Counted from the stretch's first letter, positions 18,741 to 37,152 are shown. The stretch is DNA of 64,000 bases from a bacterium (GCA_963693055.1 OY843751.1:1216001-1280000), one strand, 5' to 3'. Made by a program: numbers and translations. The notes: generated by a model from the sequence alone, not told the origin.

Positions 18741-18741
18741 T

Positions 18742-20088
18742 ATGAGACGAAGAGAATTTATGAAATCATTGGGAGTATTGGCGGCAACAACAATGACCGG
18801 CAGTATTGCCTGCTCGAAACCCAAAAAACTGCCCAATATTGTATTGATCATCTCTGATGATACCGGCTGGCATGATGTAGGATATCACGGATCAAAAATC
18901 AAGACTCCGGTTTTAGACAAGCTGGCAAAAGAAAATGTAGAGCTGGACCGGTTTTATGTGTATCCGGTTTGTTCACCCACGCGTGCTTCATTGTTGGGAG
19001 GAAGACCTCCAAGCAGATGGGGGATTAACGCACCCATAGGTGGCAGAAGTAAACAAGCATTGCCACATGAACAGCCTACGCTGGCGGGACTGCTGCAAAC
19101 AGTAGGCTATAAAACCGCTTTGGCTGGTAAATGGCACCTGGGATTACGACCGGAAGTGGGTCCCCGAAAATACGGATTTGACAGTACCTATGGCTATCTG
19201 CATGGGCAGATCGATCAGTATACGCATCATTATAAAAACGGAGACCGCAGCTGGCACCGCAATGACCAGTTTATTGATGAAGAAGGGCATGCAACCGATC
19301 TAATCACAAACGAAGCCAAGCGAGTGATCACCGAATGGAGCAAGGCCCCGGAGCCGTTTTTTCTACACATTGCATACAGTGTGCCGCACTATCCTTTACA
19401 AGAAGAAGATAGATGGGTTGAGCCTTATAATGATACTATTGAAAACAAGTCACGCAGATTGTTTGCGGCTTCCATGACGCACATGGATGCTCGTATAGGA
19501 GATGTGTTAGAGACCATAAAAGAATCCGGTATTGAGCAGGAAACCCTGGTGATCTATCTCAGTGACAATGGCGGGCAAAAAGACTGGTATCCTAAAACCG
19601 AGTATAACTTGAAGCATGGCCCCAATGATGTGCTGGGTAACAACCTGCCACTTAACGGATGGAAAGGGGATCTGTATGAGGGCGGCATCCGTGTGCCGGC
19701 AATTGTAAGATGGCCTGGTAAACTCGGCAGTGCCAAAGTGGATGAAACTATTATTGTTTATGATATTTTGACAACCGTATCCAGACTGACCGGTGTAACT
19801 TTTCAGCAGGATTGGGTATATGAAGGCATCGATGTTTGGCCAGCACTTGCTGAACAATCCAAGCTCCCGGAAAGGGTGTTCTACTGGCGCTCAAATAAAG
19901 AATATGCAGTGCGCAAAGGGAACTGGAAGCTGGTCCATGTTGGGAAAAAGCTGGAAGAGGGAGAAGAACTGCTGTTTGATGTGATTGCCGATCCCTATGA
20001 ACAATCGAACGTTTTGGACAATCATCCGGATATTGTGGCTGACTTGAAAGCCGAGATGGTAAAGCAAGCAGCAATGGATTTGGAATGA
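18742..20088 (+). CDS. Arylsulfatase B-like (S1), Tat lipoprotein
   Basis: RRREFMK plus SIAC lipobox; PNIVLIISDD.GW; CSPTR; GKWHLG; SDNGG; YEGGIRVP. Confidence 0.93.
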   Translation: MRRREFMKSLGVLAATTMTGSIACSKPKKLPNIVLIISDDTGWHDVGYHGSKIKTPVLDKLAKENVELDRFYVYPVCSPTRASLLGGRPPSRWGINAPIGGRSKQALPHEQPTLAGLLQTVGYKTALAGKWHLGLRPEVGPRKYGFDSTYGYLHGQIDQYTHHYKNGDRSWHRNDQFIDEEGHATDLITNEAKRVITEWSKAPEPFFLHIAYSVPHYPLQEEDRWVEPYNDTIENKSRRLFAASMTHMDARIGDVLETIKESGIEQETLVIYLSDNGGQKDWYPKTEYNLKHGPNDVLGNNLPLNGWKGDLYEGGIRVPAIVRWPGKLGSAKVDETIIVYDILTTVSRLTGVTFQQDWVYEGIDVWPALAEQSKLPERVFYWRSNKEYAVRKGNWKLVHVGKKLEEGEELLFDVIADPYEQSNVLDNHPDIVADLKAEMVKQAAMDLE

Positions 20089-20120
20089 AAAAAAGCCGCA
20101 AATTTTAGCGGCTTTTTTTT
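20088..20120. terminator. Bidirectional intrinsic terminator between convergent genes
   Basis: A-tract, GCCGC / GCGGC stem, then T-tract, between the sulfatase (+) and the nuclease (-). Confidence 0.8.
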
Positions 20121-20139
20121 ATTATGGTTTTACAAATAT

Positions 20140-21390
20140 CTACTTTATCAGCAAAATCTTTTGCAAAATACTCTCATTCCCACTTTGCCATTTTACAAAA
20201 TAGACACCACTATGCAGGTCCTTGGGAGTATAGTGTAATGTATAGGTGCCGGGTTTGTGGTATTCGGATTTGAGTGTTTCTATATGCTGTCCTATTACAT
20301 TGTAAACATCCGCGTGTACCATGCCAGGTGAATTCACTTTATACGAGAATACCGTAGACGCGTTAAAGGGATTGGGATAGGCATTGCTCAGTTCAAAGGA
20401 TTGTGGGAGTGCTGTTTCATTTTGGGAAACACCAGTAGTACTGTTGAAAACAATATCGGTGCAGACGGGCAGGTGGTCCGATGCAAGATAGAGGGCATCA
20501 GCTATACTGTCCGCAACGGCCTGGTTGGTACCTCCGTTGATATTGTTATTGAAATGTAGCCCGTCATTGCCAAAGGCTTGATATGATTCAGGGATACAGT
20601 ACCAGTCGCCTGGTTCCATTAAAGCTTTAGATACGAGAATAAAATCAAAGCGGTCATCCATGCCACCACCGGCTCCATCATCTACGCTGGAATAACGGGT
20701 TGACTGGGTATGGTAGGGGGTAACCGAGCGACTGTTGTTGTTATGCCAGGCAACCATGAGATCCACAGGATCATAGCATCTGCCATTGTTGTTTTCCTGC
20801 TCACCAATCAATACCTGGTAGGCTTCTTCCTGTGCGGTGTAGAGGTTGAAATCTCCGGCAACAAAAAAGCAAGCGTCCGATGGAAGTTGGTCCAGTTCTG
20901 CGCGCAAAATCTCTGCTTCGTTTTTGCGTAATAGTCGTGACCTGTCATCGTCACTGGCTTTGAGGTGCAAGGAATAGATGCGCAGCTTGGGCGCGTCTGA
21001 ATTGGTTTTCAAGGTAAACATGTATTCGCTGAAATCACGTAATCCGGATTGGATCTGTCTGTTAGACAAGAGAGAGATTCTGGACTTTTTATAAAACATC
21101 ATATTGTCAGTATCATTGCCATCGACATAAGGAGCATTGCTGTAGGTGTCCGGCATATAATAATTTAATATATCATTTTTAAAATAATCTACACCGCTTT
21201 CAGATGTTAGTTCCTGAATGACCAGCACATCCGGCTGCATTTCGTTCAGTACTTTGCGGAATCCGGGGATACGATTCTGTGCATTGACGTCTGGGAATTT
21301 CAATGTATTCCATGTTGCTATACGCAGGGTATCTTGAGCATTGGCAAATCCAAAACAAAATAATATAATCAGTAACAAAATTTTTTTCAT
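20140..21390 (-). CDS. Secreted endonuclease/exonuclease/phosphatase (EEP, DNase I-like) with T9SS type A-like CTD
   Basis: Signal peptide; IATWN, PDVLVIQE, SLHLKAS, AGDFN, DRFDFIL and SDHLPV catalytic motifs; CTD YPNPFN...SGVYFV...KILLIK; GGAG 6 nt before the ATG at 21390. Confidence 0.88.
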   Translation of the reverse strand: MKKILLLIILFCFGFANAQDTLRIATWNTLKFPDVNAQNRIPGFRKVLNEMQPDVLVIQELTSESGVDYFKNDILNYYMPDTYSNAPYVDGNDTDNMMFYKKSRISLLSNRQIQSGLRDFSEYMFTLKTNSDAPKLRIYSLHLKASDDDRSRLLRKNEAEILRAELDQLPSDACFFVAGDFNLYTAQEEAYQVLIGEQENNNGRCYDPVDLMVAWHNNNSRSVTPYHTQSTRYSSVDDGAGGGMDDRFDFILVSKALMEPGDWYCIPESYQAFGNDGLHFNNNINGGTNQAVADSIADALYLASDHLPVCTDIVFNSTTGVSQNETALPQSFELSNAYPNPFNASTVFSYKVNSPGMVHADVYNVIGQHIETLKSEYHKPGTYTLHYTPKDLHSGVYFVKWQSGNESILQKILLIK

Positions 21391-21503
21391 ATTCAACTCC
21401 AGTTTGATTCTTGAATAATATACAAAATTTTAACCAGTAACCCAAATGTACAATGTGTTTCCGATTTTGCTAAAAAAATTGTATCTTGTAAAAAGGAGAT
21501 TCG

Positions 21504-22193
21504 ATGAAAAAGATACTAGTTTTGTTATTGATTGTTTGTTGGATTGGTTTTGGCTGTAATTCAAATAAAAACAGTGATGTATTGACTTTTATGGATGTAG
21601 GGAGTTCATTGCCTTCAACAAATCCTGATGAATGGCTTATGGCTTTTGTAGATGTAGAGACAACCGGATTGATTCCCGGATATCATGAGATGATTGATAT
21701 CGGTATGGTGATAACGGACCTGGAAGGAAACGTAATTGATAGTATGTTTTGTCTTGTTCAACCGGAACATCCTGAGCGGTTATCTGAGGGTGCCTATGCG
21801 GTTAACGCTTTTGATCCGCAGCTCTGGAATTCAAGAGGAGCATTGTCTTCTAAAGCTGCTGTAGACAGTATCATGTCTTTTCATAATCGGGTTGCGGATG
21901 GAAGGTATGTTTTATTGACGGCATTTAACAGCCAGTTTGATACAGCTTTTATGGACCATCTCTTCAGGTCTTGTGATCATTCATGGCGTGAGTTGTTTCA
22001 TTATATGGTACTCGATGTTCCCTCTATGGCATGGGGACTTGGATTCCGGGATATCAGACCCTATACTTTGATGGAAAAATATAATGTGACGGATGAGCCA
22101 CATGTTGCAAAAGATCATACCGGAATAACTGGTGCTATGTTAAATGTTCGAATTTATCAGGCGATTATTTATCATTTAGAGCATATTCATTAA
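21504..22193 (+). CDS. DEDDh 3'-5' exonuclease family lipoprotein
   Basis: Lipoprotein signal ending in FGC; ExoI FVDVETTGL; ExoII AFNSQFDTAF; atypical ExoIII (HVAKDHTGITGA). Confidence 0.75.
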   Translation: MKKILVLLLIVCWIGFGCNSNKNSDVLTFMDVGSSLPSTNPDEWLMAFVDVETTGLIPGYHEMIDIGMVITDLEGNVIDSMFCLVQPEHPERLSEGAYAVNAFDPQLWNSRGALSSKAAVDSIMSFHNRVADGRYVLLTAFNSQFDTAFMDHLFRSCDHSWRELFHYMVLDVPSMAWGLGFRDIRPYTLMEKYNVTDEPHVAKDHTGITGAMLNVRIYQAIIYHLEHIH

Positions 22194-22326
22194 ATTTACT
22201 GTTGACTCGTAAGTTAAAAATGTTAAATTGAATTGTTGAAAATGATGTGACCCCGCTGATATGAGATTAAGATTTTCTTAATTGTGGCTTAATATTGCCT
22301 TAAATCCTAGTCCTTAAAATTAAATC

Positions 22327-22356
22327 TTGAATTATGAAAATTTTGTGTTTTATAAT
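22327..22356 (+). promoter_or_regulatory. Candidate sigma-70 promoter for the TBDR/PorV operon
   Basis: TTGAAT-N18-TATAAT, ending 36 nt before the ATG at 22393. A second candidate, TTGACT-N16-TAAATT, starts at 22202. Confidence 0.35.
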
Positions 22357-22392
22357 TTCCTGCAATTGTTCACTTAAACGATATAGAAAAGT

Positions 22393-24654
22393 ATGAAATT
22401 AAGTAATGTTGTTATCCTGAATTTATTACTAGTAGTTACTACCGGGTTATTCTCTCAAGCACCAACGCGCCCCTCATATATCCCAAAAGATCTGAAAAAA
22501 GTAGATGTCGATGATTACTGGCATTATCATGATGTTGGTAACCTGGGTTTATCTATTACCAATTATGGTGTATTGGGTGAAGGATATAATAATCCTGATC
22601 AGCCGTCTTGTATGTATCAGTTGAATACGGATAATATGAGAAAGCAGATTGAGCACATGTCATATGGTGGTCTGTGGATTGGTGGTCGTGGTGGTAACGA
22701 TGGTGCTGTACACGTTTCAACCGCAATCATAGATGGTGTGTTTGAAGCGGGAGAAGAAGGTTTTGAATTTACCAACACCAGCGATACCGGAGATACTATT
22801 CGGGTCCGTTCTTCCATACCAACATCTCCGTCTTTTGATCCGCAGGCTGTTTCACATCAGGACTTTATTTGTGATTTTACAGATGTGAATACAGTAGTGC
22901 CGGGGTCTGATTTTGAGATCCCCAATCACAATCCTCTTGGTTTGATGGTCCATCAGGAATCTTATGCCTGGAATTTTTCTTATACCGACGCATTTATCAT
23001 TTTAAATTATACAATTACCAATATTAACAGTTCTCCCATAACTGATATTTATGCTGGATTTTGGGCTGATGCTGCAATTGGTAATATGAATTATACCAGT
23101 ATTTATGAACCCGGTGGCGGTTGGTCCTGGTATGATAATATGAATGGTTTTGATGATGATTACAAGATGGCGTTTCAGTATGATGATGATGGTGATGATG
23201 GTTTTGCAGAGAGCTATTTTGGTATCCGGTATTTGGGTTCTTCTGGTTCACAGGATGATATCCTGGTTACATATGACCAATGGCAATGGTCTTCACCTTC
23301 AAGTCTTGCGTTCCCGGATTATGTAATGCCCATTGATGATGAAGGGCGATATGAAGTTATGCAGGGCCGTCATATTGGTAAATACCACAATGCGGTAACA
23401 GCAGGCGGGTATCCTACGGATCCATTAGAAGCCGCAAGCTGGATGCTTGTATTATCCGCGGGCACGTTAGGAGATCTTGATCCCGGTGAGTCATTGACAT
23501 TTACATTTGCCATTGTTTGTGGTGAATGGGCAAATAAAGATGAATTAGATAACGCGGAACGTCGCGCTAAATTGCGTTTGAATTCGGATTGGGCGCAGAT
23601 CGCTTATAATGGAGAAGATGTGGATGGCGATGGAAAACTTGATCCCGATGAAGATGTAAATGCCAATGGTGTTCTTGATCCCGAAGAAGATGAATATAGA
23701 GCTGATCTGGATTTGAACGGTAATGGTATTTGGGATCCGGGTGAAGAGATTTTTGGTGATGGCGATGGGATATTGGATATTGAAGAAGATGTTTATGCCA
23801 ACACTCTTAAAGGTATTATTGCCGGTAATGGAATTATTGACAGATTTATTCTTCCCAGTCCGCCTCCATCTCCGAACCTTAAAGTGATTCCCGGTGAAGG
23901 CAAAGTTACATTATATTGGGATAATGCCAGCGAGGAATATGAAGACCCAATAACTCGTGAAAAAGATTTTGAAGGATACAAGATTTATAGCGCTCCCAAA
24001 ACTGCCGGTAGTGAAGAAGACGAAACCATTCTTGCCCAGTTTGATAAAATAAATAATCTGGGTTATGACACCGGTTTTGAATTGATTAAAGTTGATACTG
24101 TAATTGATGGAAAAACATATAATTACAGATTTACCAATTCTAACCTTTTGAATGGTTGGCCTACCGAGTATTGGTACAGTGTTACCGCATTCGATTCAGG
24201 AAATCCTGACAATAATCTTCCCAGTTTAGAGAGCTCAATCCTCGAAAATAAAGTTTATGCAATCCCCGGTTCTAATCCTGCACAATCCAAAATGCGTCAG
24301 ATCACAGTATTTCCCAATCCTTACAAAGCAAATGCAATGTGGGATGGTAGTGGAGATCGTGATCGTATGCTTTGGTTTGCAAATTTACCGGAACGTTGTA
24401 CAATACGTATTTACACAATGGCTGGTGATTTGGTTGATGAAATTGACCATGATGGCGCCACCTATGACGGTGATGATGTTCAGCTCATGTCTGATCGAAT
24501 TGCCGGTAACAATACAGTCCTATCAGGCGGTATGCACGCCTGGGATCTGATCTCAACACATGATCAGGCAATAGCTACCGGTCTCTATATTTACAGTGTT
24601 GAAGATTTAGATACCGGTGACACGCAGGTAAGCAAGTTTGTAATTATAAAATAG
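22393..24654 (+). CDS. Secreted hypothetical protein with Dx[DN]xDG Ca-binding repeats, an FN3-like domain and a variant T9SS-like CTD
   Basis: Signal peptide; DVDGDGKLDPDED-type repeats; PPPSPNLKVIPGEGKVTLYWD and FEGYKIY; C-terminus VFPNPY...IYTMAGDLV...WDL...ATGLYIY...KFVIIK. Confidence 0.75.
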   Translation: MKLSNVVILNLLLVVTTGLFSQAPTRPSYIPKDLKKVDVDDYWHYHDVGNLGLSITNYGVLGEGYNNPDQPSCMYQLNTDNMRKQIEHMSYGGLWIGGRGGNDGAVHVSTAIIDGVFEAGEEGFEFTNTSDTGDTIRVRSSIPTSPSFDPQAVSHQDFICDFTDVNTVVPGSDFEIPNHNPLGLMVHQESYAWNFSYTDAFIILNYTITNINSSPITDIYAGFWADAAIGNMNYTSIYEPGGGWSWYDNMNGFDDDYKMAFQYDDDGDDGFAESYFGIRYLGSSGSQDDILVTYDQWQWSSPSSLAFPDYVMPIDDEGRYEVMQGRHIGKYHNAVTAGGYPTDPLEAASWMLVLSAGTLGDLDPGESLTFTFAIVCGEWANKDELDNAERRAKLRLNSDWAQIAYNGEDVDGDGKLDPDEDVNANGVLDPEEDEYRADLDLNGNGIWDPGEEIFGDGDGILDIEEDVYANTLKGIIAGNGIIDRFILPSPPPSPNLKVIPGEGKVTLYWDNASEEYEDPITREKDFEGYKIYSAPKTAGSEEDETILAQFDKINNLGYDTGFELIKVDTVIDGKTYNYRFTNSNLLNGWPTEYWYSVTAFDSGNPDNNLPSLESSILENKVYAIPGSNPAQSKMRQITVFPNPYKANAMWDGSGDRDRMLWFANLPERCTIRIYTMAGDLVDEIDHDGATYDGDDVQLMSDRIAGNNTVLSGGMHAWDLISTHDQAIATGLYIYSVEDLDTGDTQVSKFVIIK

Positions 24655-24682
24655 TTTAATCATTTAACGAAAGGAGCACTCT

Positions 24683-27310
24683 TTGAAAAAGTTGTTATTA
24701 GTACTCTTGATGGTTGGATGCCTTGCCGGTGTAACTATGGCACAGGTAACCCCAATTCATGACATTCAGTATACAGAAGACGAAAGTGGTGATTCTCCAC
24801 TGGCAGGTCAGACTGTTACTATTTCCGGTATTGTAACCGGTGAACCTGGTGCGTTTGGCAGCAGCTATTATGTTCAGGATGCTGAAGGCCCCTGGAATGG
24901 TATCATGGTTTATGATGGTGGCCGTGAAGTTGCTGAAGGTGATTCTGTAACTTTGACCGCTGAAGTTAGCGAGTATCATAACCTTACTGAACTTTCAAAT
25001 GTAACCGAGTTTACAATTGAAAAAGAAGGTGTATTTGGAATTAATCCCGATACTTTGACTACTGCTGAAGCTTCTACAGAAGCTTATGAAGGCTGTTTGG
25101 TTACTGTAGAAAACCTGACCATTTCTAACAATGATTTGGGATATGGTGAATGGGAAGTAGATGATGGCTCTGGTCCATGTGTTGTTGACAATGTAGCAGA
25201 TTATTATTTTGATCCTACTACAGCTACCGAAGTTGCTTCTATTACCGGTCTTATTGGTTATGATTATGGTGCATACAAAATCAGACCACGTTTGGCTTTT
25301 GATGTTGTTGAAGCTGGTGACTATACCCGTATTCAACGTATTCAGCAAGTACGTCAGAGCGACCTTGAAAAAGCTCCTTACGACAATACATCTGACATCA
25401 GCTATCTCGATGGAGATACATTGAAAATTAAAGGTATTGTTACTATGCCTACCGGTTTGAGTTATGCAGGTGACGGTATCAAATTTATCATCAGTGAACC
25501 CGACGGTGGTCCATGGTCTGCTGTTTTATCATACAATGCAGATTCTACAGCTTATCCACAGTTGTTCGAAGGTGATGAAATTGAAATGTCTGGTTATATT
25601 GGTGAATATTCCACCAGCCCCAGTAACATGACTGAATTCTGGATTACCAGTCCTATTAATATTTTGAGCATTGGTAATGAATTGCCAGAACCCGATTCTA
25701 TTGCTACAGGTGATTTGCGTTGGCCCACCACTGCAGAACAATGGGGCAATGTAATTGTTCAGGTTGGTAATGCAGTTGTAGATAATGTAACCCCGCAGTA
25801 TGAATTGTTCTCTGTAAATGATGGAACAGGTAGTGTATTGGTTGATGATGATTCTGACAGCCTTGCAAATTACGAAGACCCACCATTGGGCGCAATTGCA
25901 GAATATCTCTCTGGTTGGGTTTATCACCATTATGGTAGTTATGCAGACTCTACTGCTTATAAACTTGAACCTCTGTATGTAGGTGATATTGTTTGGGGCG
26001 CTGGTCCTCCTTCTGTAAAAAACACAGTACGTAGTATTGCTGCTCCTACAACACAAGATGATGTAGATGTAACAACTGAAGTTCAAACCAACCTTACTAT
26101 AGCCCAGGCTACCCTGAGTTATAATGTAGATGGTGGTGATTATACTGATGTTGCAATGACTGACAATGGTGATGGTACCTGGACAGGTACAATCCCTGCA
26201 CAAGCTGAAGGTGCTTATGTTAGTTATTACGTAACAGCAACTGATGATGAAGAACAGTCAACAACTGATCCTGCTGAACCTACCAGATTGAATTACAGCT
26301 ATACTTCAACAGATGCTGCATTAACAATTGCTGATTTGCAAAATACTCCATGGGAAATTGCTGACAGTCCTTATAACGGTTACGAAGTAGAGGTTTCCGG
26401 TTTTGTAACTGCTGGTGATGCATTCCTGGGTATCTATGAAGGTTTTGTAATTCAGGATATGACCGGTGCATGGAACGGTGTATATGTTTTCGATCAAACT
26501 GCTGATGATGTTAGCTTGCCGGCACTTAATGTTGGCGACTTTGTAATTGTAAGTGGTACTGTAAGTGATTATAATCCTGATTATCATTACAAATGGGACA
26601 ATAATACTGTAATTCTTGCAGACAGTGTAAAGAAACTGATTTCTAAAACTGCTTCTGAAATGCCAGAACCTGTCGTTGTTTCTACAGGTGATCTTGCTGA
26701 TGACGCTGATACTGCAGAACAATGGGAAGGTGTATTGACACGCGTTGAAGATGTAACTGTTAGCAGTGTTAATTCTTATGATTTTTCTGTAACAGATGGC
26801 TCTGGCGAATGTCGTATCGACGATGATGGTGTTGAAGATACTGTACTTGAAATCAATTCTGATGACGCCTATGTTGTTGTGAATGGAACAGATACACTTC
26901 GCGTTGGTGATGTTATTAGTGGTATTCAAGGTGTATTTACCTTTAGCTTTGGAACCTTTAAAATTGAAGTACGCGACGTAAATGATATGGGTGTAACAAC
27001 CGGTGTTAATGATGACTTTGTAGCTGCTCCATTGGCATACAATTTGGGTCAGAATTATCCCAACCCGTTCAACCCTGAAACCCGTATTTACTTTACTTTG
27101 CCACATACCCAGAATACACAAATTGTAATTTACAATGTTATGGGTCAGCAAGTACGTACATTGGTTGATCAGCAGTACCAAGCTGGACAACATGTTGTGA
27201 ACTGGAATGGCTTGAACAATGCCGGCCTCAAAGTTCCTTCCGGTGTATATTTCTACAGAATCGTTGCCGGTGATTTTGTAGCTACCAAAAAAATGATGAT
27301 GTTGAAATAA
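24683..27310 (+). CDS. Secreted protein with three tandem nuclease-associated OB-fold modules, an Ig-like domain and a FlgD-Ig/T9SS CTD
   Basis: Three repeats of I..IQ...SP..G..V.I.G.VT...QD..GPW.G..V...GD.V...G.V.EY, each followed by E..EG.LV...V.DGSG...VDD...G...Y.YG.YK..P. CTD LGQNYPNPFNPET...SGVYFY...KKMMMLK. TTG start after AAGGAG. Confidence 0.78.
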   Translation: MKKLLLVLLMVGCLAGVTMAQVTPIHDIQYTEDESGDSPLAGQTVTISGIVTGEPGAFGSSYYVQDAEGPWNGIMVYDGGREVAEGDSVTLTAEVSEYHNLTELSNVTEFTIEKEGVFGINPDTLTTAEASTEAYEGCLVTVENLTISNNDLGYGEWEVDDGSGPCVVDNVADYYFDPTTATEVASITGLIGYDYGAYKIRPRLAFDVVEAGDYTRIQRIQQVRQSDLEKAPYDNTSDISYLDGDTLKIKGIVTMPTGLSYAGDGIKFIISEPDGGPWSAVLSYNADSTAYPQLFEGDEIEMSGYIGEYSTSPSNMTEFWITSPINILSIGNELPEPDSIATGDLRWPTTAEQWGNVIVQVGNAVVDNVTPQYELFSVNDGTGSVLVDDDSDSLANYEDPPLGAIAEYLSGWVYHHYGSYADSTAYKLEPLYVGDIVWGAGPPSVKNTVRSIAAPTTQDDVDVTTEVQTNLTIAQATLSYNVDGGDYTDVAMTDNGDGTWTGTIPAQAEGAYVSYYVTATDDEEQSTTDPAEPTRLNYSYTSTDAALTIADLQNTPWEIADSPYNGYEVEVSGFVTAGDAFLGIYEGFVIQDMTGAWNGVYVFDQTADDVSLPALNVGDFVIVSGTVSDYNPDYHYKWDNNTVILADSVKKLISKTASEMPEPVVVSTGDLADDADTAEQWEGVLTRVEDVTVSSVNSYDFSVTDGSGECRIDDDGVEDTVLEINSDDAYVVVNGTDTLRVGDVISGIQGVFTFSFGTFKIEVRDVNDMGVTTGVNDDFVAAPLAYNLGQNYPNPFNPETRIYFTLPHTQNTQIVIYNVMGQQVRTLVDQQYQAGQHVVNWNGLNNAGLKVPSGVYFYRIVAGDFVATKKMMMLK

Positions 27311-27317
27311 TAAATTT

Positions 27318-27344
27318 TGCCTCCCGGATTTTTTCCGGGAGGCA
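27318..27344 (+). promoter_or_regulatory. Intra-operon stem-loop (mRNA stabiliser or partial terminator)
   Basis: Perfect 11-bp stem TGCCTCCCGGA / TCCGGGAGGCA with no downstream T tract. Confidence 0.6.
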
Positions 27345-27362
27345 TATAACCTGATAAAGCAA

Positions 27363-28877
27363 ATGAGACCGTTTAGATACTATATATTATTAGCCATAGT
27401 TTTTCTTGTTGCTGTGCAATGCAGTATAAAAGACCCTTTTGGGGATGAAAAAGATTCTCAATTGTTAGAGAATCAACCACCTGAAACCCATCTTTATCTT
27501 TTTGTTGATCAACAACAGATCACACAGTTTGATACGGTGCAGGCAGGTGATACAACTCAAATTATTCCCAAAACCTATACCACTGGAATTGATACCACCC
27601 CTAGTAAGCAAATTGTGCACTGGTGGGGAGATGACCCTGATGGTCAGGTCGTTGGTTATTATTATCAATGGGATTATGAGACCGAACCCACTTTTACTAC
27701 AGCAGAATATGATACGTTTTATGTCCCTATTCAAAGCAGTTATGATGAATTTGAAATCAAAGTGTGGGCTGTTGATAATGAGAATCTGTCTGACCCTTCT
27801 CCGGCAGTACTGATCTATCCCGTATTTAATACTCCGCCTGAAATTGCATTTAGGTTGGGTAGTAATCCGTCGGTCAGTAATAATCCGGAAGTAACTGCAT
27901 ACACATTCCCAACAAGAACATTTGTATGGGAGGCGTTTGATGATGATGGTAGAGAAACCATTACCAATATTTATTACGCCCTGGATGATACAACCACCTG
28001 GATTGCATTACCTGGTGATGAAACACAAATAACCTTGCGTGAACTTGAGCCTGGTGAGCATCGGTTCTTTGTTAAAGCACAGGATATTTCGGGTAAATTC
28101 AGTAATGTCGTTTCTTTCCCTGATCCTGATGATGATAATGTACCGCATCGTTGGGAAGTTCAGCCCGTACAAGGCTCTGTTTTACTTGTTAATGATTTTG
28201 CTCAAGATCAAAACCTCTATGAAGTACAAAATTTTTATACCGATATTTTGGATGAACTTTTAGGCTCTGATGGATATTCAGTTTGGGAGATCGGTACGGA
28301 TAATACACCGGTTGTGAATCCTGAAAATGCGATTCCATATTCTTCCATAGATATTGAAGCAAACTTGTCATATTTTGATAAAGTGATTTGGTTCTCGCAT
28401 TTGGGTAGACCCAGTTTAACAAGTGCCGGTTTGTCTATTACAAAGTTTATGAGTACTGGCGGTGGAATATTGATTACCAATGGTAATGAAGAAACCCCTG
28501 ATACAACATGGACTTTTACCAGTATTGATTCCGTATATCGTTTGAATCCGGGTGGACGTTTGCTACCGGGTATTGATATTCTTGCCTCATTTGGCAGCGA
28601 TAATGATGATGCTTATGATCTGAATCTGGGGCAGCTGGTTGGTAACCGCGTTTCGGCATTGATTCCCGGTTCCGATGCGGATGTAGTGTATTCAATGCAA
28701 CCCGATTCAACAGCATCGGTAACTGTTCCTTATACAGGGTCACCACCTGTTGGTATTCGATATCGGATAGGAAGCGGAGAATCGATCTATTTTTCATTGC
28801 CGTTACATTATTGTTTTGGTAATGATAACATGACAGACGTTCTAAGGTATATACTGTTTGAAGAATTTGAAAATTGA
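27363..28877 (+). CDS. Hypothetical lipoprotein (two Ig-like domains plus a C-terminal alpha/beta domain)
   Basis: Lipobox AVQC; repeated N.PPET/EI...W...D.DG...F.V.A.D motif; lies directly upstream of the TBDR. Confidence 0.7.
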   Translation: MRPFRYYILLAIVFLVAVQCSIKDPFGDEKDSQLLENQPPETHLYLFVDQQQITQFDTVQAGDTTQIIPKTYTTGIDTTPSKQIVHWWGDDPDGQVVGYYYQWDYETEPTFTTAEYDTFYVPIQSSYDEFEIKVWAVDNENLSDPSPAVLIYPVFNTPPEIAFRLGSNPSVSNNPEVTAYTFPTRTFVWEAFDDDGRETITNIYYALDDTTTWIALPGDETQITLRELEPGEHRFFVKAQDISGKFSNVVSFPDPDDDNVPHRWEVQPVQGSVLLVNDFAQDQNLYEVQNFYTDILDELLGSDGYSVWEIGTDNTPVVNPENAIPYSSIDIEANLSYFDKVIWFSHLGRPSLTSAGLSITKFMSTGGGILITNGNEETPDTTWTFTSIDSVYRLNPGGRLLPGIDILASFGSDNDDAYDLNLGQLVGNRVSALIPGSDADVVYSMQPDSTASVTVPYTGSPPVGIRYRIGSGESIYFSLPLHYCFGNDNMTDVLRYILFEEFEN

Positions 28878-28884
28878 TATAAAT

Positions 28885-31623
28885 ATGAAGAAAATGACAA
28901 AACTGAAACTATTATTCGTTCTCGTTATGCTGCCGGTTCTTGCATTTTCGCAAGCAATTAATACGACTATTTCAGGCCATGTCTATGACAAGGATACAGG
29001 TGATGGTCTGCCCGGTGTAAACATAATCGTTCAGGGTACTTATAAAGGTACTGCTACGGATGCAAATGGTTATTTTGAGATCAAAAGCCTTTCTCCTGGT
29101 GATTATGATATTAAAGCATCAATGATTGGTTACATTGTACAGATCCAAACCGGTATCAAAGTACAATTGAACCGTACAACAACTCTCGACTTTAAACTCG
29201 AACCTACAGTGTTGGCCTTTGGTCAAACCGTAGAAGTCGTTGGTGAAAAACCATTGTTTGATGCTGAATTGACAGCTTCTGAACAGCGCATGTCTGAAGA
29301 AGAAATCAAACAAAAGGTTGTTGAAGATGTAAATGATCTGGTAGCTGACCAGGTAGGTGTTGTAGTGCAAGACAACAAGATCTTTATTCGCGGTGGTCGT
29401 GCTGATGAAAGTATGTATGTGATCGACGGCCAGTCCATCAAAGATCCTTTGTCTGGTTATTCCAACACACTCTATATTAATGCTTCAGCCATCAAAGAGC
29501 TCAAGGTGATTACCGGTGGTTTTGACGCGGAATATGGTCAGGCCATGTCAGGCATTATTGACGTAGAGACCAGAGAAGGTGGAGATGAGTACGAGGGTAA
29601 CTTTGTGATCAAGACTGACAATCTTTTGTCAAACTATGTCAACAGTCACAATACAGATATCATCCAGTTTAATATTGGTGGTCCTGACCCTATTACTTCA
29701 AATTTGCTCCCCAATATCGGATTGGATCTTCCGGGTGAACTGGCATTCTTTTTCAGTGGTTATACTCATTTGTCAGATACCTACTTGCCTCATGCGAACA
29801 AACTCTATCCGTCAAAATCAGCATTTAATGATTTTGCACCCCGTGAGGAAAATGACTGGCATATACTTGGCAAATTGTCATGGACACTTAAACCCGGTCA
29901 AAAATTGACGTATTCCTATGATCGTTCATTAAACATTAACCAGGGATACTTTTTACCTCGTGTAAGTGGTGAACGTGGTTATCCTTATGATTTTCAGGAA
30001 AATCTGGATCATTATAACACATTTACCAAAGAGGGGTTCCTGAGTACTTTAAAGTGGACCCATACCTTGAATGCTACTACTTTTTATAATTTGAGCATTT
30101 CAAGATTTTATACCAGTTTACACTCTGCGGTTCAAAATAAACACTGGTCCGACTATGTTCAGTATCTTGACCTTGAACCTATCTATTATTATCCCACCAG
30201 TGATGGTAGTATTGAAACCCGCTTTGGAGATGGTTTCTGGGATTATGGTGATTCAGAAAACTGGTATGATTACTTTAGTGATACCTGGACTTTGAAGGGT
30301 GATTTTACCTATAACCCCAATGAACGCCATTCTATGAAAATGGGATTAGAATCCCGATATACGGATATGCAGGTGATTGATATCAATGCACCCTGGTATG
30401 GTGAATCTGGACTGGGACGTAACCATGATTTTTTCAGAGTATTTCCCAATGATGGCTCTTTATACATTCAGGATAGAATTACCTACAGTGGTATGATTGT
30501 GAATCTGGGATTGCGTTACGATTACTGGTTCCCGGGAAAATATGTTGACGATGCCATTCAAGATCCAGAAACCGTGATCATTACAGATGAAGCCCGTGAA
30601 AAATATCTTGAAGATACATTTGAGGTTTTTGGGCTGCACGGAAAAGGCCACCTGAGTCCACGGTTGGGTATTTCTCACCCAGTTACAGATAATGATGTGC
30701 TTTATATGCATTATGGCCATTTTTCTCAAAAGCCAAAAGGTCAATATGTATATGCCAAGTTGAAATCTACTTCCGAGGCAACATACCAATTGTTCGGGAA
30801 TCCTAATCTTGATCCTACAACTACGGTTGCGTACGAGTTGGGTTTAAAACACCGTTTTAACGCAAACCAGACAATTGAGATCAAGGCATATTATAAAGAT
30901 ATGTTTGATTATCCCACGGCTGTGAGTGTTAAAAAATACAGTCCGCGTTATGGAAACATTAGTTATCTCATGTATGTGAATATGGATTATGCAAGATCCC
31001 GTGGTATTGAGATGCGTTTTCGTCGTAGGTATTCAAAATACCTGAGTGGCAATATTGATTTTTCATATGCTGTTGCTACCGGTAAAAGCTCTTCACCCAA
31101 CACCAATCTGTTGGTTGCCGCGGGTAAAGTGGAAGAAAAACCACTTGGCGAAACCAGCCTGTCTTGGGACAAGCCCTACAGGGTTTCAACTGACATTTAT
31201 TTTGATGTTCCTAAAGGAGATGGCTGGAATTTATTTGGATTTAAAATGCCCGAAGATTGGGGTGTTAGCGTACGCTGGGAGCTTGAATCCGGTAAGCGAT
31301 ATACCAAGCTTGTGGATGTAGACAATAATATATATGAAAGCGACGAGTACAACAGCCTGTCTAAAATGAAAATGCGAACAGATTTAAAATTTTACAAGAA
31401 TTTTACAATGTTCAACACGCTGTTGTCCTTTTTTGTAGAAGCTGAAAATGTTTTCAATAATAAAATACCGAGAATCATCAACCCGGTAACCGGCCAGCCT
31501 TATGAGCCGGGGGATGTAATTCCCGTAACCTGGTATGATGAAGCACAGGATCTACCACCGTCAAACCCTGCCCGCTATGAATGGCCACGACGGGTTATGA
31601 CCGGTCTTGAATTTCAGTTTTAA
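28885..31623 (+). CDS. TonB-dependent receptor with N-terminal carboxypeptidase-regulatory-like domain
   Basis: ISGHVYDKDTGDGLPGVNI; plug IRGGRADE..YVIDG and VITGGFDAEYGQAMSGII; LSPRLGISHP; GNPNLDP; C-terminal F. Confidence 0.92.
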   Translation: MKKMTKLKLLFVLVMLPVLAFSQAINTTISGHVYDKDTGDGLPGVNIIVQGTYKGTATDANGYFEIKSLSPGDYDIKASMIGYIVQIQTGIKVQLNRTTTLDFKLEPTVLAFGQTVEVVGEKPLFDAELTASEQRMSEEEIKQKVVEDVNDLVADQVGVVVQDNKIFIRGGRADESMYVIDGQSIKDPLSGYSNTLYINASAIKELKVITGGFDAEYGQAMSGIIDVETREGGDEYEGNFVIKTDNLLSNYVNSHNTDIIQFNIGGPDPITSNLLPNIGLDLPGELAFFFSGYTHLSDTYLPHANKLYPSKSAFNDFAPREENDWHILGKLSWTLKPGQKLTYSYDRSLNINQGYFLPRVSGERGYPYDFQENLDHYNTFTKEGFLSTLKWTHTLNATTFYNLSISRFYTSLHSAVQNKHWSDYVQYLDLEPIYYYPTSDGSIETRFGDGFWDYGDSENWYDYFSDTWTLKGDFTYNPNERHSMKMGLESRYTDMQVIDINAPWYGESGLGRNHDFFRVFPNDGSLYIQDRITYSGMIVNLGLRYDYWFPGKYVDDAIQDPETVIITDEAREKYLEDTFEVFGLHGKGHLSPRLGISHPVTDNDVLYMHYGHFSQKPKGQYVYAKLKSTSEATYQLFGNPNLDPTTTVAYELGLKHRFNANQTIEIKAYYKDMFDYPTAVSVKKYSPRYGNISYLMYVNMDYARSRGIEMRFRRRYSKYLSGNIDFSYAVATGKSSSPNTNLLVAAGKVEEKPLGETSLSWDKPYRVSTDIYFDVPKGDGWNLFGFKMPEDWGVSVRWELESGKRYTKLVDVDNNIYESDEYNSLSKMKMRTDLKFYKNFTMFNTLLSFFVEAENVFNNKIPRIINPVTGQPYEPGDVIPVTWYDEAQDLPPSNPARYEWPRRVMTGLEFQF

Positions 31624-31632
31624 CCATGATTA

Positions 31633-32646
31633 ATGATATTGGGTATGAATGTGAAACAAATTAAATATATTACTTATGCACTAGTATTTTTATCTGCATC
31701 TTTTGTGTATTCACAAGGTTTGCTGCCAAAATTGGGTGAACAGCGTGCAGGAACAGCATCAATGACATTTTTAAAAATTGGAGTGGGTGCACGAGCTGTA
31801 TCCATGAGTGGTGCATACGTTGCAATGGCCGATGACGGTTCTGCAATGTACTGGAACCCCGCTGGAATTGTTCAAATTGGTAAAAATGAACTTGTAATGT
31901 CACATATGGATTGGCTTGCGGATATTAAATATGAATTTCTTGGGTACGCGCACCAGTTGAATTCAAATATTGGTATTGGTATGTATGTGGGCTATCTGCA
32001 TTTGGCAGATATGCCGGTAACAACTGAATATCATCCCTTTGGGAATGGTGAATATTTCGGATACAATGATATGGTGACCGGCCTTTCCGGTTCTTTGAAA
32101 ATGACCGATAAATTTTCATTTGGTATTACCTTGAAATATGTACGGGAAACGCTTGACGATCTGGTAATGGATGGCTTTATGGTCGATTTTGGTACTTATT
32201 ACTGGACTGGATTTAAATCTTTACGGGTTGCTGCTGCAATGCGTAACTTTGGTCCTGAAATGAAACCCGGTGGTACCTATATGCAAACAGAAACATCTGG
32301 TAGTGTGTCTGAAACAGATTACCAGGGTTTTTCACCACCAATTGTATTCAGTCTGGGAACCGCCATGGATGTGTATGAATATGCTGAAAATGTATTCACG
32401 CTTTCCATACAAATGGACCATCCTATGGATGATCAGGAAATATATGTTGCCGGTCTTGAATATGATTTTAACAATATCCTGCAATTGCGTTCAGGATACA
32501 AGGCCAATTTTGAGGAAAATCACTGGAGTTTTGGTGGTGGTTTGAGCGTTCCCATGTGGGGAAATGCATTGCAAATCGATTACTCTTATGCTGAATTTAC
32601 AAACCTGTCAATGACACAGCAATTTACTATAGGATTCAAGTTTTAA
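31633..32646 (+). CDS. PorV/PorQ family (UPF0164) outer-membrane beta-barrel
   Basis: AGTASMTFLKIGVGARAVSMSGAYVA..DD.SAMYWNPAG; C-terminal F. Confidence 0.88.
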   Translation: MILGMNVKQIKYITYALVFLSASFVYSQGLLPKLGEQRAGTASMTFLKIGVGARAVSMSGAYVAMADDGSAMYWNPAGIVQIGKNELVMSHMDWLADIKYEFLGYAHQLNSNIGIGMYVGYLHLADMPVTTEYHPFGNGEYFGYNDMVTGLSGSLKMTDKFSFGITLKYVRETLDDLVMDGFMVDFGTYYWTGFKSLRVAAAMRNFGPEMKPGGTYMQTETSGSVSETDYQGFSPPIVFSLGTAMDVYEYAENVFTLSIQMDHPMDDQEIYVAGLEYDFNNILQLRSGYKANFEENHWSFGGGLSVPMWGNALQIDYSYAEFTNLSMTQQFTIGFKF

Positions 32647-33878
32647 TGATGAAAAGAATACATTATATTATAATTGCAATACTATTGGTTTTGATGGCAG
32701 CATCTTGCGAGTATTCCAAGATGCCTTTACCTGTTGCGAATAGTTCCAGTTCCGGATTTGGAGCAAATGATACCAGTTATGTGGAATTGAATCCGGTATG
32801 GGATGCTGCATTTTTAGGTAATACACTTTCGCATCCCACTGATATCACTATTGGGCCTGATGGTTATATATTTATCGCTGATGAAGGTAATGACAGAATC
32901 CTGGTTGTTAATCAGTCCGGTGAACAAATGACCCAGAATGGCCTGGGCAATTTGAACAATATACCTGCACCCTCGGGTATTCATATTGATGCGAAATTAA
33001 ACCTATACGCCACAAATGGTTCAAATACTGTTTATGCCTGGAACCAATATTTTAATGCAGTTTCTATTGATTCGGTGTCTGACCGCATCGTAATCAAAAA
33101 TTATACAACGGGTGATACCTTGCATGTCACCTTGGCTGAAGCCTACTCTGGTGAAGATGCTTTTCCTGGATATCAATTCCAGTCTATATTGTTTGAAGGA
33201 TATTCCGTGGACAAGCACCCTATTCGGGATGTTTATACTTTTTATGAAGATACTCAAGCCGGAACCCAGATTAACGATATAACATCCATTGGTGATGATC
33301 TTTATGCTACCGATTCAGGTAATCAACGTATTATAAAAATTGCATTGGTCCCTGCCTGGTTTGTGAAAACCTCTGAGGGATTTGTTCTGCTACACTATCG
33401 AGGAGCATTCTCTTCGAATGCTGTAACATATGGTTCAGGAGCAGGAACTGTTGATACGCCCTGGAGCTTAGTTTCTGATGATGATAATATATATTTTAGC
33501 CAATTAGCTGGTAACTTTTTGGTGCAAAAATTGAGTGCTGTAGATTTTACTTCTCAATTTACGCTTTATCAGGATGCCATAATGGACCTGAATCGTTTTG
33601 TAGAACCCAGAGCCATAGCACTGGATGAAACAGGTGATTTGTTTGTTATGGATACCGGTTCACAAAAAGTACAGAAATTCTTTAACACGGGTACCCGTGC
33701 GGGTCAGGTTGCAGATTTGGGCGAACGCGGAATTGCAGTCACTGAATTTAATGACGCCAGAGGCTTGATGGTTAGTGACCAGGTTATTTACGTGGTAGAG
33801 AGTGGTGAAAATCAAATACGAAGATTCCAGTATTCTATATCTGATGAAGATATTCCTGATGATGAAAAACAACCCTGA
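32646..33878 (+). CDS. NHL-repeat beta-propeller lipoprotein
   Basis: Lipobox AASC; NHL repeats HPTDITIGPDGYIFIADEGNDRI and EPRAIALDETGDLFVMDTGSQKVQKF. Confidence 0.8.
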   Translation: MMKRIHYIIIAILLVLMAASCEYSKMPLPVANSSSSGFGANDTSYVELNPVWDAAFLGNTLSHPTDITIGPDGYIFIADEGNDRILVVNQSGEQMTQNGLGNLNNIPAPSGIHIDAKLNLYATNGSNTVYAWNQYFNAVSIDSVSDRIVIKNYTTGDTLHVTLAEAYSGEDAFPGYQFQSILFEGYSVDKHPIRDVYTFYEDTQAGTQINDITSIGDDLYATDSGNQRIIKIALVPAWFVKTSEGFVLLHYRGAFSSNAVTYGSGAGTVDTPWSLVSDDDNIYFSQLAGNFLVQKLSAVDFTSQFTLYQDAIMDLNRFVEPRAIALDETGDLFVMDTGSQKVQKFFNTGTRAGQVADLGERGIAVTEFNDARGLMVSDQVIYVVESGENQIRRFQYSISDEDIPDDEKQP

Positions 33879-33902
33879 TAATTTTATAAAAATTATAAAT
33901 TT

Positions 33903-33942
33903 AAAAAGCCCTGGTATTGAAAACAGTATCCGGGCTTTTTTT
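33903..33942 (+). terminator. Intrinsic terminator closing the TBDR/PorV operon
   Basis: AAAAAGCCC...GGGCTTTTTTT imperfect stem with a T tract. Confidence 0.7.
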
Positions 33943-34112
33943 GTTAATAGAAGAATATTGAATTATTTAGAATCGTTATTCTGTTAATAAGTAATAAATT
34001 GAGGGAAAATACTGAAATATTAGTAACTTGATAATTATGTTGATAAAAAAGATTTCATTTTATTTATAAATTAATTATACTGTAAACTGTTACAAAATAA
34101 TAGGATATTTGC

Positions 34113-34937
34113 ATGAAAACGCTCAGCCAGATTATCAATTATGCATTACCTGCATTATACTTTTTTGTTGTGATAGTTTATTACCAGATTTTTAAATTTC
34201 AAAAACGCGATCTTGAAAAATACACAGTTCCTTTATTACTGGTTTTACTCTTTTTTGATGGATTTAGTATTGTGTCCCGCATTATTGCTCTCAATTTAAT
34301 GCCTCTGAGTACAATATTTGACGCATTTTCTCTTTTATCCTTTTGTGTTATTTTTGTGTATTTGATTATTGAAACCACTATTAAAAACAAATCCACGGGT
34401 TTGTTTCTTGTGAGTTTTGCGTTTGTATTTAAAACTATTGCTGCATTTCATTTTAAATGGAATGCAAAAAGCAGTGCGATTTTGTCTGATCCTACCTTTG
34501 CTGTACATGCATCATTAACCATTTGTGGATATACTGCTTTGACCATTTCAGCAATTTATGCGGTTTTGTATATGGTGCAGGAACACAATATGAAAAAAAA
34601 GAAGTTTGATGTTGTGTCTTTACAGTTACCACCATTGGCGTATTTGGAAAGTATGAGTATCCGTTCTGTCACTATTGGAATACTTGTTATTGGTATTGGG
34701 TTAGGATTGGGGCATATACAAGCATATAAAATGTTTGGTAAACTTTGGCTCCCTGATCCCAAAATTATTATATCAGATTTGATTTTTATCTTTTATTTTA
34801 GTGGATATATAATTAATAAATTTTTGAAATTGAATAGTAAATGGATGGCAAGGTTTTCTCTGCTGGGATATATTATATTACTTGCAAGTGCGATTTCGGT
34901 AGTAACTATATCAAATTCGTTTCATAATTTTTATTAG
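34113..34937 (+). CDS. HemX/CcsA-family membrane protein (cytochrome c assembly domain)
   Basis: About 8 hydrophobic segments; HASLTICGY, LPPLAYLE, W.PDPK; first gene of the hem cluster. Confidence 0.8.
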   Translation: MKTLSQIINYALPALYFFVVIVYYQIFKFQKRDLEKYTVPLLLVLLFFDGFSIVSRIIALNLMPLSTIFDAFSLLSFCVIFVYLIIETTIKNKSTGLFLVSFAFVFKTIAAFHFKWNAKSSAILSDPTFAVHASLTICGYTALTISAIYAVLYMVQEHNMKKKKFDVVSLQLPPLAYLESMSIRSVTIGILVIGIGLGLGHIQAYKMFGKLWLPDPKIIISDLIFIFYFSGYIINKFLKLNSKWMARFSLLGYIILLASAISVVTISNSFHNFY

Positions 34938-34945
34938 AGTATAAT

Positions 34946-36226: not shown

Positions 36227-36228
36227 AT

Positions 36229-37152
36229 ATGAGCAAGTTTATACGAATTGGAACCCGCGGCAGTCAATTGGCTTTATGGCAAGCTAATTTTGTGCAGAGT
36301 GAATTGGAAAAAAATAATCCCGATGTTTCTTTTGAGCGTGTTATCATCAAAACCACAGGTGACCGCGACCAAAAGTCGTCCCTGACTCAGATCGGTGGGC
36401 AGGGTGTTTTTACCAAAACTATTGAAGATGCCTTGTTGAATAAAGAAATTGATGTAGCAGTGCACAGTCTCAAAGATCTTCCCTCTCAAGAGACGGCGGG
36501 TCTTGTATTGGGTGCTGTACCACAACGTGGTTTTGTTGAGGATGTATTGGTTACCGAAAATGGCACAACTTTGCAGCAGCTTGCACAGGGTGCCAGAATT
36601 GCAACAGGTAGTATTCGCCGGCAATCGCAATTACTTGCTTTACGTCCGGATCTGGAAATCAAAGATCTGCGTGGTAATATTGATACACGTTTGCGTAAAT
36701 TGGCGGAAGAAGATCTGGATGCCATCATCATGGCAAAGGCAGCAATTGTTCGTTTAGAACTGGACCAGGTCAAGTACAGTGAATTTAAAGTGGATGACAT
36801 GGTGCCGAGTGTAAGCCAAGGTGCTATTGGTATTCAAATCCGACAAGGTGATGAGGAAACATTGTCAGCCGTTCATAAAATGAATCATGCGCCTACATTT
36901 CAGGCTGTAATGGCTGAACGATCATTACTACGTACGCTGGACAGTGGGTGTCAGTTCCCGGTTGGGGCTTTTGCCCAGGTTGTAAGTGACGAAGTTTTGG
37001 ATATTATTGGGTATGTGGGAAGTGTTGACGGTAAAACAATTATCAAAGAGAGACTGGCCGGCAGTCCCGAACAGGCCGAATTGTTGGGAGAGAGACTGGC
37101 TGAAATTTTAATTGATAAAGGTGCAAAGGATGTATTGAAGGAATTGTCCTGA
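36229..37152 (+). CDS. hemC: Hydroxymethylbilane synthase (porphobilinogen deaminase)
   Basis: IGTRGSQLALWQA, AVHSLKDLP, LRGNIDTRLRKL, GCQFPVG. Confidence 0.96.
   Translation: MSKFIRIGTRGSQLALWQANFVQSELEKNNPDVSFERVIIKTTGDRDQKSSLTQIGGQGVFTKTIEDALLNKEIDVAVHSLKDLPSQETAGLVLGAVPQRGFVEDVLVTENGTTLQQLAQGARIATGSIRRQSQLLALRPDLEIKDLRGNIDTRLRKLAEEDLDAIIMAKAAIVRLELDQVKYSEFKVDDMVPSVSQGAIGIQIRQGDEETLSAVHKMNHAPTFQAVMAERSLLRTLDSGCQFPVGAFAQVVSDEVLDIIGYVGSVDGKTIIKERLAGSPEQAELLGERLAEILIDKGAKDVLKELS

Follow-up and report, generated by a model that had tools for sequence, protein, structure and literature searches.

We examined a 64,000-nt stretch of a bacterial genome (GCA_963693055.1 OY843751.1:1216001-1280000; hereafter the window, in whose coordinates all positions are given) and observed that eight adjacent genes at 20140-33878, encoding proteins P0001 to P0008, comprise a conserved six-gene core (P0003 to P0008) and two accessory genes of nuclease-related families. 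The core combines a TonB-dependent receptor (TBDR; P0006) with a PorV-family barrel (P0007), a partner protein (P0003), a protein with predicted oligonucleotide/oligosaccharide-binding (OB) folds (P0004) and two predicted lipoproteins (P0005 and P0008). With a probability of roughly 0.6, we consider the locus to be a DNA/RNA-utilisation machine on a SusD-free chassis that imports fragments for phosphate, nucleosides and carbon; binding, cutting and import are the steps that we infer. The original prediction, made from the DNA alone, had proposed a nucleic-acid counterpart of a polysaccharide-utilisation locus (PUL), and this reading is supported: next to orthologous cores we repeatedly find nucleic-acid or nucleotide hydrolases that are not homologous to one another, and next to paralogous cassettes we do not. 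The synteny check for such linkage had been set in advance as a refuting test; the linkage was found and the reading survived.

A conserved core with recurrent hydrolase neighbours

The six-gene core is one conserved system. With P0005 as the core marker, we found matches in 38 of 61 KSB1 genomes (one of them, L029, a lone gene), in 25 of 51 from the phylum of genome G063, whose record bears the label Calditrichaceae, and in 22 of 81 from that of G061, labelled Ignavibacteria in its record; 16 of the latter 22 were taken for analysis. A species collection held at least 405 matching stretches, many labelled Marinimicrobia. All six genes were present in 83 of the 141 loci examined (L038-L051, L102 and L103 were left out as duplicates), and their order was kept in 82 of these 83, L090 being rearranged. 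The core loci span KSB1 and genomes labelled Calditrichota, Marinisomatota and Ignavibacteria. P0003, P0005 and P0006 are 64-74% identical within the order, and in a tree that was quick rather than careful the 29 six-gene TBDRs (P0006 and 28 others) formed one side of a branch against 16 paralogues (SH-aLRT 100). In many KSB1 loci the core is accompanied by another, more distant TBDR-like gene of the same direction, downstream in L004, L007, L009, L012, L013, L016-18, L022 and L024-26 and upstream in L030 and L033.

Thirty of the 71 loci with both flanks visible carry a nuclease or nucleotide-hydrolase gene within two genes of the core (KSB1 3/18, G063's phylum 3/13, G061's phylum 12/16, best-80 set 12/24), as counted by hand with cluster representatives scanned rather than each member; GDPD (five loci), a metallophosphoesterase (L032), L090 and G030 were excluded from the 30. 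The neighbours represent seven unrelated families, namely EEP (at least three subfamilies), endonuclease I, PLD-like, NPP, 5'-nucleotidase, DEDD and IU nucleoside hydrolase. They lie upstream or downstream, co-directional or convergent, in about ten distinct arrangements. The EEP family of P0001 is directly upstream of the core in seven Marinimicrobia-type loci and directly downstream in L139, L140, L149 and L164, and further EEPs, one fused to a UshA-like domain, fill neighbour slots in L091, L092, L167-169 and L177. The same slots hold endonuclease I in L097, a PLD-like protein with its own OB/DUF5689 module in L108, L109 and L113 (L114, with the N-terminal part only, was counted), 5'-nucleotidases in L063, L108, L113 and L154, and an NPP phosphodiesterase (PF01663) in L170-176. 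By chance one would expect roughly 0.7-2.3%, if 8 such genes are assumed among 4929 and 15 among 2600; the 6.5 Mb genome that carries the window, G000, holds four EEP genes, one 5'-nucleotidase and no endonuclease I, and a 2.9 Mb genome has seven EEP matches.

Paralogous cassettes served as controls: 11 in G000, three in L134-136 (selected neighbours scanned) and one on the Rhodothermus marinus plasmid pRMAR01. None of these 15 has a nuclease or nucleotide-hydrolase gene within two genes, and their neighbours are enzymes acting on glycans, peptides or peptidoglycan. In one, a GDPD and a metallophosphoesterase lie three to four genes off, and in another a Sde182 nucleoside-hydrolase-like gene lies five genes off.

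Phosphate genes also stand near the core in three KSB1 or Marinisomatota lineages (L004, L016, L017, L018; L019, L037; L057, L059, L062). All are upstream and divergent, one or two genes away, and comprise a phosphate porin with PstS and an ABC permease, a PhoB-like response regulator with its kinase, or a Na/Pi cotransporter. These neighbours point to phosphate as one payoff of the system.

P0004 carries six predicted OB folds

From its fold and relatives, P0004 is likely a nucleic-acid binder. It had been called a triple OB-fold protein; it is an OB protein with a C-terminal domain (CTD) of a type IX secretion system (T9SS), but its predicted OB folds number six, arranged as three tandem pairs, and it also has an Ig-like domain. 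The OB-pair modules (about aa 21-210, 215-438 and 547-775) are mutually homologous (28-32% identical), and the OB folds of the model (pLDDT 85.3) match RPA, tRNA-synthetase anticodon domains and MCM (Z 10-12, rmsd 1.6-3.2, 79-96 residues aligned). A whole-protein Foldseek search, used as a lead only, gave mostly long low-TM matches and listed the p204 HIN-dsDNA complex at E 9e-7 with low TM. P0004 also matches the N-terminal module of ExeM (6e-21, NCBIfam), and its OB module 1 shares 37-40% identity with the OB module found in complete ExeM nucleases from the same bacterial family. Among 17 plasmid hits, six are annotated ExeM/NucH, one SpnA and one 5'-nucleotidase. DUF5689 is marginal in P0004 itself (30.2 bits, cut-off 28.6, with no single stretch passing) and a six-frame search of G000 was negative for it; P0004 orthologues match it clearly, with up to 71.8 bits and E-values down to 1e-19.

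Some Marinimicrobia-type orthologues of P0004 have a cytochrome c-like domain (PSCyt1/Cytochrom_C) at the N-terminus, lamin-tail domains, or both (L081:6053-9946, L089:4821-8624, L091:5689-9945, L095:6619-9573, L101:6081-9935); the former would place a haem domain on a presumed surface binder of nucleic acids. ExeM-type nucleases encoded on their own, 1200-1330 aa long, with P0004-like OB pairs and, where complete, a CTD-type tail, occur in KSB1 genomes without the operon marker (L178, L180, L181, L182, L183). We considered ExeM as the marker of a second uptake cassette in operon-less KSB1 genomes and rejected it, the ExeM genes lying in 17 loci without a TBDR/PorV cassette. In family f1 (n = 18), the core marker was found in 5/18 and full ExeM in 8/18, with both in one; mutual exclusion was not significant.

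The EEP and DEDD genes are recurrent accessories

Whether P0001 and P0002 belong with the other six genes had been left open. They are not core, but they are accessory genes rather than chance neighbours. The families of P0001 and P0002 occur in six and three of the 61 KSB1 genomes, respectively. The P0001 family adjoins the core in four of the five KSB1 genomes that have both, in two arrangements. The DEDD family adjoins it in three separate arrangements, standing after the OB gene in G030 and, together with an IU nucleoside hydrolase, before the rearranged core in L090. G000 has one copy each of the CTD-bearing EEP, the DEDD lipoprotein and the OB-pair protein, and an 8-kb stretch of its 6.5 Mb holds all three.

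P0001 belongs to the EEP, or DNase I-like, family (PF03372 42.7 bits, cut-off 24.5) and retains N30, E62, H144, D182/N184, D248/D251 and D307/H308, which we take to be the EEP active-site motifs; its score against the ExeM model is only 15 bits. The T9SS CTD model TIGR04183 scores above its cut-off in both P0001 and P0004. P0002 had been named a DEDDh exonuclease. Its D50, E52, D146 and H205 are present, and invariant in a 32-sequence alignment, but glycine (G210) occupies the position of the fourth acid, so that P0002 does not have the full set of four acidic residues plus histidine that we take to define the DEDDh motif. At least 1003 exported proteins with the DEDD fold belong to the family, frequently under the label Pol III epsilon/alpha-like; in the 32 aligned, an invariant HTGITG replaces the usual HxAxxD, and they are apparently an uncharacterised extracytoplasmic subfamily.

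A TBDR-partner-PorV chassis without SusD

G000 contains 23 PorV-family genes, 12 of them with a related TBDR within three genes, and each of these 12 cassettes has a partner protein with a ...K(F/L)xIxK/R-type C-terminal tail. A TBDR, a special-CTD partner and a PorV-family gene stand in one operon here and in 11 further copies in G000. We built a hidden Markov model from the C-termini of the 11 other partners; P0003 scored 94 bits and all others at most 58 (159 hits). Because of this CTD-subtype score, we assign P0003 as the partner of this cassette, although its gene stands three positions before that of the receptor. Around the remaining 11 cassettes, where scanning covered 86 of the 92 partner and flanking proteins listed, lie alpha-amylases, GH28 with pectate lyase, GH2, GH5 and GH43, and also M6/S8/C10/S15 peptidases, LacI regulators and symporters; by these predicted neighbours they are PUL-like.

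P0003 had been described as a Ca-repeat protein, and three DxDxDG-like motifs are indeed present at 409, 421 and 440, but the protein is mainly a predicted galactose-mutarotase-like beta-supersandwich with an FN3 domain and the special CTD. It has no Pfam match, and its C-terminus is PorZ-like (1.9e-6, NCBIfam). The structure model (pLDDT 79.8) aligned over 247 residues with non-catalytic domains of GH15/94/116-type enzymes (Z 18.1, rmsd 3.3), and the modelled fold appears unlike SusD. No sequence relative of P0003 was found in the PDB, an Atlas search with P0003 and P0005 gave unnamed clusters only, and the closest named P0003 homologues are KSB1 proteins, on which ground we take G000 to belong to KSB1. 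For P0005, the nearest named Atlas clusters were DUF4960/fn3 at 0.89, a lead only. P0006 scored 61.9 bits against the SusC/RagA model TIGR04056 (cut-off 368) and P0007 fell below the PorV and PorQ equivalog cut-offs (NCBIfam). PF07980, the one SusD Pfam searched genome-wide, had no match in G000 and was positive in the Bacteroides thetaiotaomicron control.

The CTD proteins have the signal peptide and CTD of T9SS cargo, and G000 has a translocon gene, with a SprA_N match in a 2107-aa frame and six C25 (PorU-type) domains above cut-off; GldM was not found in G000 by a search that had no working control. P0003 is likely held by the PorV-family barrel and may thereby cap receptor P0006.

Between two CRISPR-cas operons, plasmid pRMAR01 of the cultured R. 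marinus DSM 4252 carries a cassette of TBDR, partner and PorV together with genes for a peptidoglycan-recognition protein and a serine hydrolase (L137:11665-21339). Another subtype, kept in three KSB1 genomes (L134-L136), consists of TBDR, partner and PorV followed by a P0005-like lipoprotein and two CTD proteins, with no recognisable enzymes. In G000, the runner-up in the partner-type CTD comparison (58 bits), a protein of 1398 aa, is encoded ~1.3 kb from a comEC match (G000:C1:4251113-4257444).

Proposed mechanism

P0003, P0004 and the EEP would be exported by a T9SS-type route via their CTDs. The operon's own PorV-family barrel would then grip the special CTD of P0003, as PorQ does PorZ, positioning the supersandwich above the receptor at the place of SusD. 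The OB pairs of P0004 would bind nucleic acid, with P0005 and P0008 acting as lipid-anchored scaffold or co-binders, and the polymer would be cut by the lineage's secreted nuclease: the EEP here, and elsewhere endonuclease I, PLD-type proteins or other EEPs. Oligonucleotides would be imported via P0006, and an NPP-type phosphodiesterase, 5'-nucleotidase, nucleoside hydrolase or the DEDD lipoprotein would complete the breakdown.

We further propose, at what we regard as even odds, that KSB1, Calditrichota, Marinisomatota (SAR406), Ignavibacteria and their relatives share a second, SusD-free surface uptake design, in which a T9SS-exported supersandwich clamped by a PorV-family barrel caps a TonB receptor, and that its most conserved version is an ancient nucleic-acid importer with a six-OB catcher. 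If this proposal holds, these lineages would possibly also be naturally competent without a pilus.

Contrary observations and alternative explanations

Several observations weigh against a nucleic-acid machine. No nuclease or nucleotide-hydrolase neighbour lies within two genes of the core in 41 of the 71 loci, and kinship inflates the 30 that have one, the seven NPP loci and the seven EEP-LTD loci each probably representing one event. The P0001 family, full ExeM and endonuclease I, the only three nuclease types searched there, had no match in 31 of the 38 KSB1 carriers, so that the system may not include nucleic-acid cutting in every carrier. Not every EEP fold is a nuclease, and the solved structure closest to P0001 is TDP2, a weak match. 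The activity of P0002 is uncertain because its fourth acidic residue is replaced by an invariant glycine, found at H+5 in 32/32 aligned sequences; the invariant E198 might substitute for the missing acid. The OB modules of the window contain 15-18% Asp+Glu against 3-4% Lys+Arg, so that nucleic-acid binding would need cations or base stacking; the mean over 105 orthologues is 13.7% against 5.0%, with modules near neutral in some Ignavibacteria-type orthologues only. The fold of P0003 resembles domains of glycoside hydrolases and phosphorylases, although a sugar-enzyme-like fold common to the chassis need not report the substrate. No Pho-box enrichment was found: an E. coli-type consensus reached at least 10/14 in 18% of 96 upstream regions and in 13% of shuffles, the window scoring 9. 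Finally, DNA as the only source of C, N or P reportedly served B. thetaiotaomicron poorly, even when its ddb locus was present (bioRxiv 10.1101/2025.03.18.642099). Direct repeats with 11-bp spacing upstream of the core (2.3 versus 1.7 per region; seven in the window) were also considered and are unsupported.

The main rival, which we hold to be unlikely, is that the core imports long DNA for natural transformation, alone or alongside nutrition, and that the nucleases are later nutritional add-ons. The single copy, the identity of P0003, P0005 and P0006 and the strict gene order do look housekeeping-like, most KSB1 carriers lack the nucleases searched, and a DUF5689-TBDR pair is essential for transformation in Riemerella anatipestifer, as far as the accessible part of that study describes it (PMC8459023). 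ComEC is present in G000 but also in 10 of 14 control genomes, and is not discriminating. Against long-DNA import, no comEC, comEA or dprA was seen among the scanned neighbours, which instead include 5'-nucleotidases, NPP and nucleoside hydrolase, enzymes that destroy genetic information, and the three secretin genes of G000 mean that it may have a pilus route.

A less probable alternative is that the receptor takes, for phosphate, phosphodiesters that are small or are not nucleic acids (nucleotides, cyclic nucleotides, nucleotide cofactors, glycerophosphodiesters or teichoic-acid fragments), and not polymeric DNA. NPP, 5'-nucleotidase, GDPD (in five Marinisomatota loci), PLD-like and EEP folds all act on such substrates, and the nearby phosphate-uptake genes and the acidity of the OB modules fit as well. 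However, a six-OB protein homologous to ExeM and DdbD modules sits in the invariant core, endonuclease I is DNA-specific, and small phosphoesters usually pass through porins.

That this is an ordinary glycan, peptide or envelope-related cassette with nuclease neighbours by chance would fit the starch-, pectin-, peptide- and peptidoglycan-type loci served by the same chassis, the sugar-enzyme-type fold of P0003 and the CBM56 score of the P0004 Ig domain (below cut-off), but we consider it very improbable given the variety of hydrolase arrangements against the rough chance rate, the only sporadic glycoside hydrolases near orthologues (L030, L090, L139) and the LacI regulators seen at four paralogous cassettes and at no orthologous locus.

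Gene layout and surroundings

All eight open reading frames that had been predicted were found in place, and Pfam and NCBIfam profile scans upheld the family calls and, as had been claimed, recognised no glycoside hydrolase, peptidase or SusD among the eight proteins. The hairpins foreseen as terminators at the two ends were likewise present. Gaps inside the six-gene core are 28, 52, 7, 9 and -1 bp; the DEDD gene is 199 bp from the core and 107 bp from the divergent EEP gene. The longest open frame of P0006 begins at 28858. The hairpin between P0004 and P0005 may give differential expression within the operon. Promoter-like sites are at chance level (59 versus 60.5), and short repeats around the EEP gene look like chance and were set aside.

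Table 1. Genes and hairpins of the locus, in window coordinates
Feature	Description	Position	Strand	Support
Hairpin	terminator-like, A and T tracts on both sides; between sulfatase gene and EEP gene	20084-20123	.	89% complementary
P0001	accessory; secreted EEP (DNase I-like) phosphodiesterase with ordinary T9SS CTD	20140-21396	-	PF03372 7e-11, PF18962
P0002	accessory; predicted lipoprotein (C18), DEDD/RNase T fold	21504-22193	+	PF00929 7.8e-7
P0003	core 1; cassette partner: predicted beta-supersandwich, Ca-motif insert, FN3, partner-type CTD	22393-24654	+	
P0004	core 2; three tandem OB-pair modules, Ig-like domain, ordinary T9SS CTD	24683-27310	+	
Hairpin	GC-rich; between P0004 and P0005	27318-27344	.	
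P0005	core 3; predicted surface lipoprotein (C20 invariant), no family	27363-28877	+	
P0006	core 4; TonB-dependent receptor (N-terminal extension, plug, barrel)	28885-31623	+	PF13715, PF07715
P0007	core 5; PorV/PorQ-family barrel	31633-32646	+	NF033709 190.9 bits, cut-off 90
P0008	core 6; NHL-repeat predicted lipoprotein (C21)	32646-33878	+	PF01436 1.3e-14
Hairpin	followed by T run; end of operon	33894-33949	+	absent from terminator-scan listing, found separately

Upstream, a co-directional run at 13604-20088 encodes an MFS-type sugar permease, three sulfatase-like proteins and an SGNH-like protein, as named from motifs. It stops at the 20084 hairpin and adjoins the operon only in the same-genus locus L001. 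Directly downstream (34113-40388) lies a haem-biosynthesis-like run with CcsA-, HemA-, HemC-, HemD-, HemE- and HemN-like genes, judged by sequence, which is not kept beside the operon outside the genus.

Significance

Extracellular DNA is a large pool of C, N and P in seawater and sediments. If the proposed SusD-free design and its nucleic-acid role are real, uncultured KSB1, Calditrichota, Marinisomatota and Ignavibacteria lineages would be major, so far unrecognised consumers of dissolved and sedimentary DNA/RNA. The single-copy six-gene marker makes such consumers and their route testable in metagenomes, metatranscriptomes and DNA stable-isotope probing. In addition, a transporter architecture that links T9SS export with TonB import, and that seems not to have been described before, can be tested here with a defined class of substrate; the chassis is present in a cultured organism, on R. 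marinus pRMAR01. In the portion of one study available to us, catabolic nucleases are described as poorly characterised across genomes, and a Marinisomatota class was found in DNA-amended cultures, without this system being named there (PMC8630151).

Comparison with known systems

Neither the operon nor the cassette was found described in the literature searched, which left out most subscription papers; the ddb supplements may list loci outside Bacteroidia. The closest functional parallel is ddbABCDEF, a DNA-utilisation locus of B. thetaiotaomicron, here compared from the accessible text of Sharan et al. (bioRxiv 10.1101/2025.03.18.642099 = PMC12478041). DdbD, which is proposed to bind DNA as partner of the DdbC receptor, is the protein with the DUF5689 domain, and the authors liken their model of it to a HIN domain. 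In both systems, a PUL-like layout brings together a TBDR and a presumed DNA binder of DUF5689/OB type. Variable secreted nucleases go with this layout in ddb and, as nuclease or nucleotide-hydrolase neighbours, at 30 of the 71 present loci. In contrast to DdbD, which is a lipoprotein encoded beside DdbC, P0004 contains tandem DUF5689-like repeats, is CTD-secreted, has no P0005-like N-terminal lipobox Cys context and is encoded two genes from the TBDR. Not listed for ddb in that text are the supersandwich partner, the PorV-family barrel and the two lipoproteins of the present core, and the nucleases at this core are optional neighbours. The locus would work like ddbABCDEF, which it resembles in layout and DUF5689, but is a candidate rather than an established member of the ddb loci, defined in the same source by a DdbC homologue. 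Since a ddb-like function is already described in Bacteroidota, only the chassis is new, not the function.

In R. anatipestifer, RA0C_RS04915 and RA0C_RS04920 likewise pair an outer-membrane barrel bearing a carboxypeptidase-regulatory-like N-domain with a DUF5689 protein implicated in DNA uptake, the latter being essential for transformation. Unlike the present locus, this is a two-gene Flavobacteriaceae system (DUF5689+DUF5017), for which the accessible part of the report describes no PorV-family or CTD partner gene (PMC8459023).

The SusC/SusD PULs of Bacteroidota resemble the present system in joining a TBDR to co-encoded surface binders and substrate-specific enzymes, and in having many paralogous cassettes per genome with LacI regulators and symporters. 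The locus is nevertheless not a SusC/SusD locus: its constant partner is a beta-supersandwich CTD protein instead of a helical lipoprotein, and PF07980 is absent from G000. PorQ-PorZ and PorV-PorU, which we take to be T9SS attachment-complex pairs, also match a PorV-family barrel with one CTD protein, and the C-terminus of P0003 is weakly PorZ-like; here, however, one genome has the pair in 12 cassettes, where it goes together with a nutrient receptor. Finally, the extracellular nucleases ExeM, NucH and SpnA share the OB-pair module and the EEP catalytic fold with this locus, where binder P0004 and catalytic P0001 are separate genes.

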